From NCBI GenBank assembly GCA_963662665.2, contig CAXXJS010000054.1, positions 1-23,464 of the forward strand: a stretch of DNA of 23,464 nt, in the 5' to 3' direction. Origin of the DNA: Candidatus Latescibacterota bacterium. GTDB lineage: Bacteria > Latescibacterota > UBA2968 > GCA-2709665. Every line of letters starts with the position of its first letter. Position 1 is the stretch's first letter. The notes below the pieces were generated by a model that searched no databases, was not told where the DNA came from, and saw only the letters and a program-made list of their open reading frames with translations. Both the position numbers and the translations under genes were made by a program. This document shows positions 3,995-7,752 of the stretch, one piece after another.

Positions 3995-4023
3995 TTGACA
4001 GGGATGTATACAAGGAATATACT
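3995..4023 (+). promoter_or_regulatory. Sigma70 promoter driving the Ro60/ncRNA cassette
   Basis: TTGACA (3995-4000), 17-bp spacer, TATACT (4018-4023). Confidence 0.8.
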
Positions 4024-4031
4024 TGCTCGCG

Positions 4032-4322
4032 GTGAAAGAATTACTTGGAAATACAGAGATCAAAGCGGTCTTGTCGATGTCGGTTGTATCGACTCACAAG
4101 GCCATTACTGGCCTTCTGATCGGGTACTTCTACTGGCACGAGGATACGCTCGCAGTCGTATCGATGATCGCGCTGTACGGGCTCTACACGATCCCGTCTC
4201 TGGTCTTTGGGTTGGTTTCGACCGATAAAATCAAAACGTTGTGGTGGCAGATCATGCTGAGTGTGATCAACGTCATCTGCAATGTTTGGTTGGTCGGTCG
4301 CATCATGGAGCACTGGCAATGA
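4032..4322 (+). CDS. Small multi-pass membrane protein
   Basis: About three hydrophobic segments. The track's TTG at 4023 overlaps the -10 box, so the near-leaderless GTG at 4032 is preferred. Confidence 0.6.
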   Translation: MKELLGNTEIKAVLSMSVVSTHKAITGLLIGYFYWHEDTLAVVSMIALYGLYTIPSLVFGLVSTDKIKTLWWQIMLSVINVICNVWLVGRIMEHWQ

Positions 4323-4350
4323 ATTCGTAGCAAGAGAAACAATTTGGAAG

Positions 4351-4457
4351 CGCCCGTAGCGTAGATCGCGGTTACTTCGGTTTGACAGGTTCGATTCCTG
4401 TACCGGCAAGGCTCATAGAGCCGGTCGGTATGCGCCGTGGTCGAAAAATCTCGGGCG
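4351..4457 (+). ncRNA. Y RNA-like unit 1 (T-arm plus closed acceptor-like stem as cargo)
   Basis: Outer stem CGCCCG/CGGGCG; TAGCGTAG-N8-TACTTC; inner stem GATCGCGGT/GCCGTGGTC; T arm ACAGG-TTCGATT-CCTGT followed by ACCGGC...GCCGGT. Confidence 0.75.
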
Positions 4458-4464
4458 TCCGATT

Positions 4465-4602
4465 TTGCTCGGTAGCGTAGAAATCGGGTACTTCGCTTTT
4501 GGTGCGAGAGATCCGGGTTCGAATCCCGGCGGGCCGCTGAGCGGTCTGTGGTGTAACGGTTATCACGCTTACGTTCCCCGATTCCGACTGTACTCCGAGC
4601 AA
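4465..4602 (+). ncRNA. Y RNA-like unit 2 (circularly permuted tRNA-Gln(UUG)-like cargo; YrlA-like)
   Basis: Outer stem TTGCTCGG/CCGAGCAA; inner stem AATCGGG/CCCGATT; anticodon arm, T arm, loop-closed acceptor stem and D arm in permuted order. Confidence 0.8.
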
Positions 4603-4608
4603 TCTTTA

Positions 4609-4685
4609 CCGGTCGTAGCGTAGACAGCGGTTACTTCTCATTTTGTAAATGAACCTCCGTACCGTTGCCGTTTGATCTCGACCGG
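4609..4685 (+). ncRNA. Y RNA-like unit 3 (anticodon-like hairpin cargo)
   Basis: Outer stem CCGGTCG/CGACCGG; inner stem CAGCGGT/ACCGTTG; hairpin TCAT-TTTGTAA-ATGA. Confidence 0.75.
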
Positions 4686-4692
4686 ATCATGA

Positions 4693-4760
4693 GGCGGAGT
4701 GGAATTCGTCAGGCTTGGGAGCTCAGCGAATCGCCGGTTCAAGCCAGCACTCCGCCACCG
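4693..4760 (+). ncRNA. Degenerate tRNA-like element
   Basis: GGCGGAGT/ACTCCGCC stem followed by ACCG; imperfect T-arm GCCGG-TTCAAG-CCAGC; one internal hairpin ATTCG...CGAAT; no D arm. Confidence 0.35.
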
Positions 4761-4765
4761 CATGA

Positions 4766-4794
4766 GAGTTCCCCGCATTGGTGGGGATAGACCG
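4766..4794 (+). CRISPR. Solitary type I-E CRISPR-like repeat (not an array)
   Basis: GAGTTCCCCGCATTGGTGGGGATAGACCG is 29 nt and 23/29 identical to the E. coli I-E repeat GAGTTCCCCGCGCCAGCGGGGATAAACCG as recalled; the hairpin is retained. Confidence 0.7.
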
Positions 4795-4797
4795 ATT

Positions 4798-4907
4798 GCC
4801 CCATAGCGTAGGAGACAGATACTTCTTGGGCACATTGTTCCAAGCCTGTCACGCCGGGTTGATTCCGATACGTGGCAGACGCAACTGTTTCCGGTTGTTC
4901 TTGGGGC
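4798..4907 (+). ncRNA. Y RNA-like unit 4 (two-hairpin cargo)
   Basis: Outer stem GCCCCA/TGGGGC; inner stem GGAGACAG/CTGTTTCC; hairpins CTTGGG...TCCAAG and CTGTCACG...CGTGGCAG. Confidence 0.75.
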
Positions 4908-4914
4908 TTGTTTT

Positions 4915-4986
4915 TGGCCGTAGCGTAGGGTTCGGTTACTTCTTAAGGCTAATTAGATTTGTACCGAATCCGCTTATTCTCGGCCA
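4915..4986 (+). ncRNA. Y RNA-like unit 5 (minimal; short AU-rich loop)
   Basis: Outer stem TGGCCG/CGGCCA; inner stem GGGTTCGGT/ACCGAATCC; same invariant motifs. Confidence 0.75.
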
Positions 4987-4998
4987 TCATCGTGGAAG

Positions 4999-5098
4999 GG
5001 CCGGTAGCGTAGACAACCGATACTTCGTACATTGGCGGAAAAGTCCCTTTTGGGCACTGCCGAATTGTTGCTCTCGGTTTTCGATTTGACCTCCGGCC
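4999..5098 (+). ncRNA. Y RNA-like unit 6 (long hairpin cargo)
   Basis: Outer stem GGCCGG/CCGGCC; inner stem AACCGA/TCGGTT; cargo TTGGCGG-AAAA-GTCC...GGGC-A-CTGCCGA. Confidence 0.72.
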
Positions 5099-5153
5099 TC
5101 CCTACCTTGACGGCCCTGAATCCGCTACATCACACCTAACCGGAGGAGGGGAA

Positions 5154-6503
5154 ATGAAACTCAACAGACCACCGAAACCGACCGAATTCACGCATCAGGG
5201 AGCACCGGCCGCCCGGCTCAACATCTTCCAGAAGTTGCGCCGATCCGTGCTGGCCTGCCTGTTGTGGGAGAAGGAATTCTACGAAGACGGGATCTCGATC
5301 GCGGATCAGATCACCACTCTTGCCAAGGCACTGAAAGACCCGGTGGGTCTCTCGATGCTGGCCTGTCAGGCTCGATCCGACTACAAACTACGGCACGTCC
5401 CGCTGTTGCTCTGCTCGATCCTCGCGGAAGTCGGGAAGGGTTCCAGTGTGGTCGCGGACACCATTGCTCACTGCATCCATCGGGCTGATGAGCCGGCTGA
5501 GTTCTTGGCAATCCACGCGAACCGCAACGGTGTCAAGGCGAGCGAGATCAAGCCGATCATCACGAACCAGATGCGGAAAGGGCTGGCCCGGGCATTTCAT
5601 CGGTTCGATGCCTATCAGTTGGCGAAATACGATCGCCCGGGGGAGATTCGGCTTCGGGATGTCCTGTTTCTGTGCCACCCGAAACCGGCCAGTCCTGAGC
5701 AGGAAGACCTGTGGAAGCGCCTGATCGACGGCACGTTGGAACCGCCCGACACGTGGGAAGTCGCGCTGTCCGGGGGAGCCGACAAGAAAGAGGCGTTCAC
5801 CCGACTGCTCAAGGAAGAGAATCTCGGCTATCTCGCGTTGCTTCGGAACCTGCGGAACATGGTCAATGCCGGAGTCAAGTCGGATCTGATCCGGAAGTCC
5901 ATCCGCGCCCGCAAGGGAGCGCAGTGGGTGTTGCCGTTTCGGTATGTCGCGGCCGCTCGGGCCTGTCCGCAAATGGAGCCGGATTTGGATGCCGCGCTCT
6001 TGGCGTCGCTCGAATACGGACCACAGACCATGCCCGGACACGGCAAGACGTTTCTGCTGATCGACGTGTCCGGTTCCATGGATTCCCGATTGTCGGCGAA
6101 GTCGGACCTGACCCGGATGGATGCCGCTGCGACTCTGGCGTCGATCTGGCCTGGAGCGGATCGAGTCTTCACCTTCTCACAATCGATCAAGGAAGTTCCG
6201 CCTCGAAAGGGAATGGCCGGAGTCGATGCCATCCGCAATTCCCAACTCCATGGCGGAACCTATCTCGGGGATGCGATCCGACATCTGAACAAGGAAATGG
6301 AGCCGGAGGATCGGTTGATCGTTCTCACTGACGAACAGTCAGCCGACCGAGTGCCGGATCCCCGGGCGAAGACGGCCTACATGGTGAATGTCGCGTCCTA
6401 CCAGCGCGGGATCGGTTCTGGCCGGTGGAACCGGGTTGACGGGTTTTCCGAGCACATCATCCGGTATATCCGGGAGTTGGAGATGGCCACGAAAATCAGT
6501 TGA
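5154..6503 (+). CDS. rsr: Ro60/TROVE-domain RNA-binding protein with C-terminal vWA domain (Rsr orthologue)
   Basis: TROVE motifs LRRSVLACLLWEKEFYEDG, RADEPAEFLA, FDAYQLAKY, LRDVLFLCHPKP, TWEVALS, ALLRNLRN, LPFRY; vWA MIDAS DVSGSM, GGT, LTDEQ; strong GGAGGAGG RBS. Confidence 0.93.
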   Translation: MKLNRPPKPTEFTHQGAPAARLNIFQKLRRSVLACLLWEKEFYEDGISIADQITTLAKALKDPVGLSMLACQARSDYKLRHVPLLLCSILAEVGKGSSVVADTIAHCIHRADEPAEFLAIHANRNGVKASEIKPIITNQMRKGLARAFHRFDAYQLAKYDRPGEIRLRDVLFLCHPKPASPEQEDLWKRLIDGTLEPPDTWEVALSGGADKKEAFTRLLKEENLGYLALLRNLRNMVNAGVKSDLIRKSIRARKGAQWVLPFRYVAAARACPQMEPDLDAALLASLEYGPQTMPGHGKTFLLIDVSGSMDSRLSAKSDLTRMDAAATLASIWPGADRVFTFSQSIKEVPPRKGMAGVDAIRNSQLHGGTYLGDAIRHLNKEMEPEDRLIVLTDEQSADRVPDPRAKTAYMVNVASYQRGIGSGRWNRVDGFSEHIIRYIRELEMATKIS

Positions 6504-6528
6504 CAGACTTGTATACTTCTTGTATACT
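6500..6528 (+). promoter_or_regulatory. Sigma70 promoter overlapping the rsr stop codon
   Basis: TTGACA (6500-6505), 17-bp spacer, TATACT (6523-6528); tandem CTTGTATACTT twice (6508-6529). Confidence 0.65.
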
Positions 6529-6555
6529 TGTCTTGTTTGACCCTTTCTTGAAGTC

Positions 6556-6594
6556 AGCGGTCATCGGGGGCGTTCCCCGGTGGCCGCTTTCTTC
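6556..6594 (+). terminator. Intrinsic terminator-like hairpin
   Basis: 14-bp stem AGCGGTCATCGGGG/CCCCGGTGGCCGCT; its G-U pairs work on the plus-strand RNA; followed by TTCTTC; lies between convergent genes. Confidence 0.65.
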
Positions 6595-6787
6595 ATTCTG
6601 GGGTTGAATTTTCTCGCTTTCGGTTCTCCAGCAAGAGTTGGATCGCCACTTCGACGGGGCCGGGGATCGCGATCGCACCGGACTGCCATAGGTAGACCGT
6701 CCTGCGATTCACTTTGAGCCGATTGGACACACCAATCACCGTGAAACCCAGCTTTTTCCTCGCTTCCAGGAATTCAGCAGGAGTCAT
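6593..6787 (-). CDS. XRE/Cro-like helix-turn-helix protein
   Basis: MTPAEFLEARKKLGFT...LKVNRRTVYLWQSG...IPGPV; the ATG overlaps the upstream stop (ATGA). Confidence 0.8.
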   Translation of the reverse strand: MTPAEFLEARKKLGFTVIGVSNRLKVNRRTVYLWQSGAIAIPGPVEVAIQLLLENRKRENSTPE

Positions 6788-7752
6788 GACGTATTCTTTA
6801 TCCTTGTCGTGACATCGCACCTGCAATTCACAACCTCCCGTCGTGGCCCGCTCGGGTCACCCGGATGCAACAGCAAAGCCCCACCGACTGAGAATCGTTC
6901 CCGCATCCCTCTTTGCTGTCCACGCGCCGCCAAGTGAGTCAAGCGCACCCTGTCGTCATTCGCCGTAATCCAAGTCCGGATCAGATTCGCTTCGTCTATA
7001 TGGCCCTCGTCAATGGCTTGCAGGTAGGCCTCATGGGAAGCTGAGTGGACCGCTGAAAGGGCTTCGGTTCGCGCTATGGTCCGAGTTCTGAACGCTCGGT
7101 ATCGGTCCCTATAGCGCTCGGTCATCCGGTCGATTTGCGCCGGAGACAATGGCTCTCCGGTCGTGATCGATCGTCGGATCGAACCATCGAATCTCCGGTC
7201 GCGAAGCTCTCGGTTCAGAGCTGTCGCATCGCCTTCCGCCGTCCGGCTCAGATAGGTCCGGTAATTCTGGACGTGCCGTTGCTGATTCTGAGTCAGCCCG
7301 ATCGATGCGCGGAAGTTGCGGGCCTGTGCGTTCGGGTTGAGGCCTCGCCTGATCCCATCGACCAAGGCCTCCCGGGTCGCCGCTCGCTGCTGGTCGGTGA
7401 GTTCGGAAATCAGCCGGAGACGCTGATTTTGCATGTAGTTGACGGCACGGTGATTCACCCGGTCGAAGCCGATCGTCACGTCGAGTGCGCCTTCAAGGAA
7501 GGCCGCTGTTTTGGCTCCGGCTACGGAATAGACTCCTGAATAAGAGTCGTAAATCCGCACGGCACCGGCGTTGGCAGCCGTCTGGATCGCTTCATCAGGC
7601 CGGCCCTGGCCGATAAGGTCTGCCAAGTCCGTGAGCGTCCCTGTGGCGCTTACAGCGGCCAGAAAGCCGCTCTGAGCCGCTCTCCCCATGTCGGAAGTCG
7701 CCCGTCTGACCAGATCGGCCAAGCGGTCAGCCCTGTCGATTGTGTCCGGCAC
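6784..7752 (-). CDS. Head morphogenesis protein (SPP1 gp7 / Mu F family)
   Basis: RTIARTE, WITANDDRVRLTH and HPGDP...VVNCRC motifs. Confidence 0.88.
   Translation of the reverse strand: MPDTIDRADRLADLVRRATSDMGRAAQSGFLAAVSATGTLTDLADLIGQGRPDEAIQTAANAGAVRIYDSYSGVYSVAGAKTAAFLEGALDVTIGFDRVNHRAVNYMQNQRLRLISELTDQQRAATREALVDGIRRGLNPNAQARNFRASIGLTQNQQRHVQNYRTYLSRTAEGDATALNRELRDRRFDGSIRRSITTGEPLSPAQIDRMTERYRDRYRAFRTRTIARTEALSAVHSASHEAYLQAIDEGHIDEANLIRTWITANDDRVRLTHLAARGQQRGMRERFSVGGALLLHPGDPSGPRREVVNCRCDVTTRIKNTS

Follow-up and report, generated by a model that had tools for sequence, protein, structure and literature searches.

Is the sequence at positions 4492-4567 of contig CAXXJS010000054.1 (GenBank assembly GCA_963662665.2, Candidatus Latescibacterota bacterium) a transfer RNA (tRNA) whose parts have been rearranged, or does it belong to a different kind of RNA? 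The question arises from the order of its parts: the 3' half of a tRNA comes ahead of its 5' half, with a closed acceptor stem. The contig, 23,464 nucleotides (nt) long, was analysed as a whole, and we call this stretch the window. Judging from its sequence, we consider it highly probable that the segment is the tRNA-like effector module of a Y RNA of the YrlA class, forming part of unit 2 in an array of six units that lies upstream of a gene for a Ro60-type protein.

The tRNA-like module of unit 2

The first-pass annotation of this DNA had described a complete, circularly permuted tRNA-Gln(UUG)-like fold, opened between the D and anticodon arms. Every element of that description is present where it had been placed (Table 1), and our corrections are limited to wobble pairs and to a weak fourth pair in the D stem. 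The hairpin stem consists of TTCGC and GCGAG, with a T-G wobble as its first pair, and its loop (4497-4503) carries the triplet TTG at 4499-4501. The last T of the variable loop has as its partner an A, the second base of the D loop (A15:T48). In the acceptor hairpin, the 3' strand (4530-4536) comes first, C 4537 pairs with G 4541 around the TGA loop (4538-4540), and the 5' strand (4542-4548) makes 7/7 pairs, two of which are G-T. The D stem has three good pairs and a T-T, and the D loop contains GG.

Unit 2 reaches a four-arm cloverleaf with a 7-nt anticodon loop only after re-permutation. When 4542-4567 is joined to 4492-4537, as the first-pass annotation had suggested, ARAGORN calls a tRNA-Gln(ttg) of 72 nt with full anticodon and T stems, and the call is unchanged in four more constructs whose joints were moved by 1-2 bases. 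The minimum-energy fold of unit 2 also agrees with the arms, apart from the D region, which it draws otherwise. Taken by itself, the folding energy of unit 2 provides weak evidence (z-score -1.84, with 7 of 200 shuffles as stable).

The class to which we assign the module has been characterized in earlier work. Chen et al. 2014 (PMC4201824) describe YrlA RNAs, encoded near Ro60, as having a 5' GNCGAAN0-1G motif that is thought to contact Ro60, a YUAY sequence, and T, acceptor stem and D arms. Their text further reports covariation of the 15:48 pair, YrlA-like sequences in 22 phages, modification of Salmonella YrlA by TruB and DusA, and an M. smegmatis YrlA whose acceptor of 7 base pairs (bp) enables RNase P to cut it in vivo, followed by CCA addition. 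It also mentions that many YrlA RNAs have a fourth stem-loop, called V and said to be 'less conserved', on the 5' side of the T arm. In the crystal structure of the Salmonella module described by Wang et al. 2018 (bioRxiv 10.1101/312249), the 5' and 3' strands form the equivalent of an anticodon stem, and there is no anticodon loop. The same paper already compares YrlA with circularly permuted tRNA genes and discusses an origin of YrlA from dimeric tRNA transcripts.

Unit 2 has the YrlA-type order of T arm, closed acceptor and D arm, with tRNA-type loop bases. It is also encoded on the same strand as a Ro60/TROVE ortholog and within 4 kilobases (kb) of it, as the start of the TROVE and VWA gene (5154) is 552 nt downstream of the end of unit 2 (4602). 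The sequence TAGCGTAG and the GTAC or TTAC of the window are variants of GNCGAAG and YUAY, and therefore we take the part comprising the T arm, acceptor and D arm to be the known YrlA module. In agreement with this assignment, positions 28-81 of the Rfam YrlA model (RF02553), which represent the T arm, acceptor hairpin and D arm, align to 4510-4566 when the search is run in E-value mode. The likeness to the published YrlA RNAs extends to the same-strand Ro60 neighbour, variants of the GNCGAAG-type motif and of YUAY, the order of the arms, the 15:48 covariation (see below), the 7-bp acceptor of M. smegmatis YrlA, and the fourth stem-loop upstream of the T arm that many members have. In contrast to Salmonella YrlA as described, unit 2 has a hairpin with the exact geometry of an anticodon arm. 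It also differs from the published YrlA RNAs in that its Y stem is attached by long unpaired linkers (3 nt and 10 nt) and that there are six units per array.

The contrast with YrlA that the first-pass annotation drew, i.e., that the anticodon arm is retained here, is right in that the hairpin exists. However, it was overstated: because the hairpin corresponds to the V stem-loop of Chen et al. 2014, the claim of novelty is only partly right. In the YrlA literature that was searched, we found no account of this stem-loop as an anticodon arm, and the figures or supplement of Chen et al. 2014 may show the hairpin, for CcrColossus among others. What we add is modest: 65 of 153 full units share the anticodon-arm geometry and loop signature of this hairpin, its triplet is diverse, and such units are systematically mis-annotated as tRNA genes.

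Covariation and the hairpin in relatives

There is strong evidence that all six helices covary. For this analysis, 23 related units that were chosen for having all arms were aligned, six helices were named and their pairs were counted. Of 819 cells, 91.9% pair, versus 38-47% when the partners are slid by 1-3 columns. Changes on both sides are seen in 31 of 36 pairs, and none of 500 shuffles matches the observed values. The paired cells amount to 90.2% in the basal stem, 88.8% in the upper stem, 100% in the T arm, 93.8% in the acceptor, 98.9% in the D arm and 82.4% in the hairpin, where the percentage is biased upward because the units were picked for having all arms. All pairs of the upper stem (7/7) and of the acceptor (7/7) change on both sides. 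Within the hairpin, the two inner pairs covary (GC in 14 and CG in 5 units; AT in 9 and CG in 8), and the outer three hardly vary, since the conserved TTC makes up their 5' side. The 15:48 pair covaries as well, in the manner of the compensatory Levitt pair of the YrlA class. Among 21 hairpin units compared, it is G:C in 17, and the window and L026 have A:T.

Relatives were collected by means of their Ro60-like genes. These were found in 28 viral contigs (43-59% identity), in 96 records of cultured or deposited phages, and in at least 571 stretches of bacterial or archaeal genome contigs, of which 80 were kept. The set scanned for units comprised 111 sources: the window, L001-L028, two named phages and L040-L119. 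Exact duplicates were dropped, and L032 was omitted because it is near-identical to L013. In the inspected viral loci, the 5' motif adjoins the Ro60-like gene on the same strand, in 1-7 copies per locus. The scan gave 382 distinct motif units in 103 of the 111 sources. A T arm is present in 164 of them, and 153 of these (full units) combine it with a closed acceptor and a D arm.

We defined the exact anticodon-arm register as a 5-bp stem with a 7-nt loop that lies 4-5 nt before the T stem. A count in one fixed register on a MAFFT alignment misses hairpins that start one base earlier (L001, L006:2841 and L019), and the parser therefore accepted variable loops of 4 or 5 nt. Among the 153 full units, the register shows 5/5 pairs in 40, 4/5 in 25, 3/5 in 20, 2/5 in 21 and 1/5 in 9, and the segment is too short in 38. 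With a threshold of at least 4/5 pairs, 65 full units have the hairpin and 88 do not, so the hairpin is conserved in homologues, the opposite of what the first-pass annotation had named as a refutation. When no restriction is placed on length, 69/153 units have at least 4/5 pairs, versus 16-28/153 in ten shuffles. Registers other than that of an anticodon arm give 22-48 units at the same threshold, some of which overlap real helices. The commonest geometry among perfect hairpins is a stem of 5 bp and a loop of 7 nt placed 5 nt before the T stem (24 units), followed by the same hairpin placed 4 nt before it (5 units).

The 65 hairpin units share a loop signature, with a pyrimidine at position 32 in 55, T33 in 54, a purine at position 37 in 56 and A38 in 46. 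The middle triplet takes 24 different values. The segment after the hairpin is AGGTC in 34 of the 65, and the 15:48 pair is G:C in 43, A:T in 9 and another combination in 13. Hairpin units are found in sources labelled Alphaproteobacteria, Acidobacteriota, Planctomycetota and others, and the same layout occurs in two actinophages, Gordonia phage VanLee and Streptomyces phage LuckySocke. When one re-permuted construct was made per unit, ARAGORN called 16 of the 17 that have at least 4/5 pairs as a tRNA with a 3-nt anticodon.

Among the 88 full units that lack this register, 37 form a two-strand stem with at least 4/5 pairs right after the D arm, which is the canonical YrlA form. Both forms can occur within one locus, e.g., at L026:4360 and L026:4501. 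Caulobacter phage CcrColossus (presumed to be L013), which a later paper (PMC12135203) counts among the phages of Chen et al. 2014, has units of the hairpin form (L013:2163 and L013:2492). Rather than a singular intermediate between tRNA and YrlA, unit 2 is therefore typical of a large subclass.

It is less straightforward to decide which arm of a tRNA the hairpin represents, since the order of the arms agrees both with an anticodon arm and with a variable arm. We lean towards the view, based on sequence features, that the hairpin stacks under the D stem as an anticodon arm does, and that the Y stem is inserted at the position of nucleotide 26. Four features favour this view. The first is the geometry of a 5-bp stem with a 7-nt loop, and the second is the loop signature Y32-T33...R37-A38. 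The third is a separate variable loop of 4-5 nt that ends in the partner of the 15:48 pair. The fourth is the long unpaired linker from the D stem to the upper stem, which measures 10 nt in unit 2 and mostly 5-12 nt in units of the hairpin form. At this position a tRNA has a single nucleotide.

Several observations weigh against our interpretation of unit 2 and its hairpin. The Rfam YrlA score at unit 2 is 15.7 bits, compared to a gathering score of 69. This gathering score is also unreached in 20 viral loci, and in five phage loci together with L013, where the best score is 47 bits. The TAGCGTAG of the window has two departures from GNCGAAG. In 17 of the 65 hairpin units, including unit 2, the 3' strand of the hairpin could instead make at least 4/5 pairs with the five bases that follow the D arm, and an alternative, two-strand fold is therefore possible in these units. 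Chen et al. 2014 (PMC4201824) read the V stem-loop as a variable arm. ARAGORN is lenient with re-permuted constructs, of which it also called 4 of 9 that have at most 3 pairs. Finally, the units counted above are relatives of each other, and the counts therefore do not represent independent events.

No Rfam family matches the window at its gathering threshold. The Rfam YrlA model misses a phage clade of these YrlA-class RNAs.

Possible roles of the hairpin and competing explanations

Two covarying stems close the RNA and flank an internal loop that holds a Ro-site-like motif. The predicted apex is a five-way junction with four arms (hairpin, T arm, closed acceptor and D arm), in which the core contacts of a tRNA, namely T8, the GG of the D loop and A15:T48, are able to form. 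By analogy with the YrlA literature, Ro60 would bind the 5' motif. The L-shaped module may be recognized by host tRNA-binding factors or enzymes, and RNase P may open the 7-bp acceptor. In this way, the module could tether Ro60 to a tRNA-binding effector, or it could shield the RNA from nucleases.

A more specific idea is that phage Ro60 loci carry panels of cloverleaf mimics, in which V is an anticodon arm and the triplet sets the tRNA-directed factor that is engaged. Candidates for such a factor include anticodon nucleases, modification enzymes, synthetases and repair ligases. We regard this idea as unlikely.

It is similarly improbable, in our estimation, that the anticodon-like loop is a bait, i.e., that it is the working part of the RNA, displayed on Ro60, and soaks up anticodon nucleases or tRNA-targeting defences. 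A variant of this reading is that the loop brings Ro60 and nuclease or repair partners to damaged tRNAs. Either function would come on top of the identity as a Y RNA, and is not an alternative to it. The retention of Y32, T33, R37 and A38 alongside a triplet with 24 values in 65 units speaks for such a function; however, drift under a purely structural constraint would also yield diverse triplets, and 88 of the 153 full units lack the hairpin register. Phages that have several tRNA-like units in arrays fit the idea, as does literature that places Ro60 and Y RNA systems in contexts of RNA repair and conflict (including bioRxiv 10.1101/312249), and the reported in vitro binding of a phage Ro60 and its Y-like RNAs to host PNPase (PMC12135203). 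On the other hand, a link from any unit to a nuclease is absent, neither an RNA ligase nor a kinase was seen in the window proteins that were scanned (10 with PHROGs and 9 with Pfam, which is not all of the open reading frames, or ORFs), and the hairpin of unit 2 agrees in at most 11 of 17 bases with any tRNA of the assembly.

We attach a very low probability to the proposal that unit 2 is a permuted pre-tRNA. In this case, the acceptor loop would be opened by RNase P and 3' trimming, CCA would be added, and a chargeable tRNA-Gln would result, either ligated or in two pieces that the Y stems hold together. Unit 2 does have an acceptor with 7/7 pairs, and a 7-bp acceptor lets RNase P cut M. smegmatis YrlA (PMC4201824). 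Wang et al. 2018 (bioRxiv 10.1101/312249) raise the possibility for YrlA in general, but their text gives a bacterial counterpart of the splicing endonuclease as unreported. This enzyme matters for the permuted tRNA genes of algae and an archaeon that the same paper describes. They resemble unit 2 in that the 3' half comes first and the acceptor is initially a closed loop, but they mature to real tRNAs by means of the splicing endonuclease and a circular intermediate, and their break lies within an arm or loop, with termini that form a processing helix. In unit 2, the break lies between the D arm and the hairpin and holds the predicted Ro60-binding module.

The ends of the acceptor are also relevant to this proposal. 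When re-permuted, unit 2 resembles an ordinary phage tRNA gene in having a full cloverleaf that ARAGORN accepts. Unlike such a gene, it has no encoded CCA, and its acceptor is closed without free ends, the two strands being joined via C, TGA and G (4537-4541), with the C at position 73 paired to G 4541. The acceptor loops of full units are mostly 2-10 nt long, which also argues against processing to a tRNA. CCA follows position 73 in 9 of the 153 units, versus about 2.4 expected by chance. This excess points in the direction of a pre-tRNA, but several of the nine are close relatives, and we rejected an encoded CCA as an argument because it is too weak. Lastly, we compared re-permuted unit 2 to the assembly's 43 other tRNA calls. 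The nearest are two tRNA-Gln (scores 15 and 14), with a tRNA-Pro at 12, and the best match of the hairpin is 11/17 bases. This similarity is weak and not distinctive, so recent capture from a tRNA-Gln of the assembly was also rejected.

The hairpin might instead be a relic. It would then descend from the first anticodon arm of a dimeric tRNA ancestor and serve as a stable spacer, in the published sense a variable arm, whose anticodon-like details are without function. A model of dimeric-tRNA origin has been published (bioRxiv 10.1101/312249), the stem-loop is described as 'less conserved' by Chen et al. 2014 (PMC4201824), and the hairpin is missing from many units, at least 37 of the 88 other full units having a two-strand stem in its place. 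However, free drift should have led to loss of the 7-nt loop, T33 and R37. Instead, T33 is kept in 54 and R37 in 56 of the 65 hairpin units, across the Alphaproteobacteria, Acidobacteriota and Planctomycetota labels and the two actinophages, and compensatory changes occur in the hairpin stem. A mere relic is accordingly hard to credit.

That unit 2 contains an ordinary tRNA-Gln(TTG) gene, as ARAGORN calls it in native order at 4465-4537 and as equivalent GenBank annotations in related phages would have it, has next to no chance of being correct. The call is an artefact in which the D-arm-like Ro-site motif is taken for a D arm, albeit a poor one, and its acceptor contains a T-C mismatch. The Rfam tRNA model (RF00005, E-value mode) skips the D stem and gives 20.4 bits at 4476-4531, compared to a gathering score of 29. 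The 5' strand of the call makes 8/8 pairs with 4595-4602, and the stem formed in this way covaries in relatives. We also rejected a relic of a tRNA in native order, because acceptor pairing in 21 hairpin units averages 4.57/7, which is at the level of the cross-unit control (4.40/7).

The array, its Ro60-type gene and related loci

Table 1. Coordinates of unit 2 and its elements, the other Y-like units, neighbouring features of the window, and Y-like units annotated as tRNA genes in phage records
Feature	Position	Strand	Description and support
Y-like unit 2, whole RNA	4465-4602	+	minimum-energy fold; helices covary in relatives
Basal stem of unit 2	4465-4472 / 4595-4602		8/8 pairs
TAGCGTAG, variant of GNCGAAN0-1G motif	4473-4480	+	Ro60 contact as proposed by Chen et al. 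2014; six copies in window
Upper Y stem, 5' strand	4482-4488	+	pairs with 4577-4583; fold
Anticodon-arm-like hairpin (V stem-loop of Chen et al. 2014)	4492-4508	+	5 bp, 7-nt loop
Variable loop AGAT	4509-4512	+	4 nt; last T able to make 15:48 (Levitt) pair
T arm CCGGG / TTCGAAT / CCCGG	4513-4529	+	5/5 Watson-Crick pairs; Rfam YrlA alignment, ARAGORN
Closed acceptor stem	4530-4548	+	7 bp and C-G closing pair, TGA loop; Rfam YrlA alignment, ARAGORN
T8-G9 (4549-4550) and D arm (4551-4566)	4549-4566	+	Rfam YrlA alignment, ARAGORN
Linker from D stem to upper Y stem	4567-4576	+	10 nt, predicted unpaired; fold
Upper-stem 3' strand, 3' side of internal loop, basal-stem 3' strand	4577-4602	+	fold, covariation
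Y-like unit 1	4344-4462	+	z = -3.09; basal stem, TAGCGTAG, upper stem, T arm, closed hairpin
Y-like unit 3	4609-4685	+	motif and simple apical hairpin; repeat block, fold
Y-like unit 4	4798-4907	+	repeat block, fold z = -3.17
Y-like unit 5	4915-4986	+	repeat block, fold z = -3.54
Y-like unit 6	4994-5123	+	repeat block, fold z = -0.75
Ro60-type protein (TROVE and VWA)	5154-6503	+	449 amino acids; Pfam, PHROGs, structure match
Promoter-like site TTGACA, 17 nt, TATACT	3995-4023	+	11/12 matches, consensus match only
Terminator-like hairpin after Ro60 gene	6556-6588		15 bp
Mis-annotated tRNA-Thr, Xanthomonas phage 10KY502B	L033:1945-2012		
Mis-annotated tRNA-Ser, Brevundimonas phage Kikimora	L034:2229-2303		
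Mis-annotated tRNA-Arg(tct), Gordonia phage VanLee	L035:1302-1373		
Mis-annotated tRNA-Ser(gct), Streptomyces phage LuckySocke	L036:1363-1436		

The region 4345-5130 contains six copies of a 35-nt block, which consists of the TAGCGTAG core, 6-7 bases, and TTACTTC or a near variant (GTACTTC in unit 2). The YUAY position is occupied by GTAC (4488-4491) in unit 2, with one departure, by TTAC in three of the window's other units and by ATAC in two; most relatives have TTAC. The motif of relatives is TGGCGAAG, an exact match to GNCGAAN0-1G, or TGGCGTAG. Common to the six units is a fold with a basal stem, an internal loop whose 5' side is the core, an upper stem and a variable apex. Their folding z-scores range from -3.5 to -0.3, and the fold of unit 6 is uncertain because of its z-score.

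Unit 1 has a T arm (ACAGG / TTCGATT / CCTGT) preceded by merely a 12-nt segment, and no D arm is recognizable in this unit. It may be the counterpart of the YrlB type with only a T arm that Chen et al. 2014 (PMC4201824) describe in M. smegmatis. Between units 3 and 4 there is a long stem-loop (4692-4757), closed by a stem of 9 bp, in which the standard 5' block is missing. It contains AGCGAAT, which resembles the Ro-site motif, as well as the T-loop-like GGTTCAAGCC. This stem-loop may be a seventh, divergent unit. Most of the array is bracketed by a 23-nt inverted repeat (4333-4355 and 5052-5074; 83% complementary) that spans from just upstream of unit 1 into unit 6, and whose halves might pair in a precursor transcript.

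The protein encoded downstream of the array matches Pfam TROVE (E = 1.7e-10) and VWA_2, as well as phrog_850, annotated as an RNA-binding protein. Residues 13-445 match the Ro60 structures of Thermus phage phiLo (9KOP and 9L5Y) with E = 1.2e-22. Phage phiLo itself encodes two Y-like RNAs, Yrl1 and Yrl2 (PMC12135203). They resemble the present units in lying upstream of a phage Ro60 gene, in their stem-bulge-stem structure and in a CGAA-type motif, but the main text of that paper has 0 occurrences each of 'tRNA-like' and 'anticodon'. In the window, the promoter-like site precedes a small ORF (4023-4322), which is followed by the array and then by the Ro60-like gene. We think that the array is probably co-transcribed with this gene and cut from a precursor. 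A look-up of RNA sequencing runs that contain this stretch returned none. A second copy of the promoter-like site (11/12 matches), at 6500-6528, overlaps the end of the Ro60 gene and lies directly ahead of the terminator-like hairpin.

The window is an entire contig of a 4.86-Mb assembly. Elsewhere on the contig are genes for major head, Mu-like portal, MuF and terminase proteins, indicating a phage. Because the Ro60 and Y RNA locus lies on a phage-like contig, its binning with the assembly says little about the host. The Rfam YrlA model has no match at E <= 1e-5 in 151 genomes, i.e., the assembly and 150 others of its phylum.

In four GenBank phage records, the 5' part of a Y-like unit, consisting of the Ro-site motif, hairpin and T arm, is annotated as a tRNA gene (Table 1). 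In each case, a closed acceptor and a D arm come after the annotated tRNA. The features in VanLee and LuckySocke have no Rfam tRNA match at E < 0.01.

Some related loci have features of their own. Two hairpin units (L013:2163 and L014:2407) have acceptor loops of 34-35 nt that open with A-CCA straight after the 7-nt acceptor 3' strand, like the 3' end of a tRNA. In the Bacteroides crAss-like phage PhiCrAssBcn21, a 144-nt sequence downstream of a TROVE gene (L038:3668-3811; Rfam tRNA 46.6 bits) has an open acceptor, D arm and T arm in native order, with a Y module in place of the anticodon region. In this reciprocal permutation, the Y module runs from the upper-stem 3' strand through the 3' loop motif and a closed basal hairpin to TGGTGTAG and TTACTTC. 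Its sequence suggests a Y RNA arranged in tRNA order, with acceptor ends that are free. A related viral contig (L007) has a transfer-messenger RNA gene (6532-6891) about 2.2 kb downstream of its Ro60-like gene, with an Rfam score of 113.8 bits and a tag peptide given by ARAGORN.

For the annotation of phage genomes, these observations mean that the 5' parts of such Y RNAs are being labelled as tRNAs, both by tRNA finders and in at least four GenBank phage records, which inflates phage tRNA counts and hides Y RNAs. For the RNA family, comparison of the relatives lends support to the view that bacterial and phage Y RNAs originated from tRNA. A large subclass with full anticodon-arm geometry and a variable triplet also provides a handle that can be tested experimentally. 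If it is true that the triplet sets the factor engaged, the long-sought effector of the YrlA tRNA-like domain would gain a handle on its specificity.

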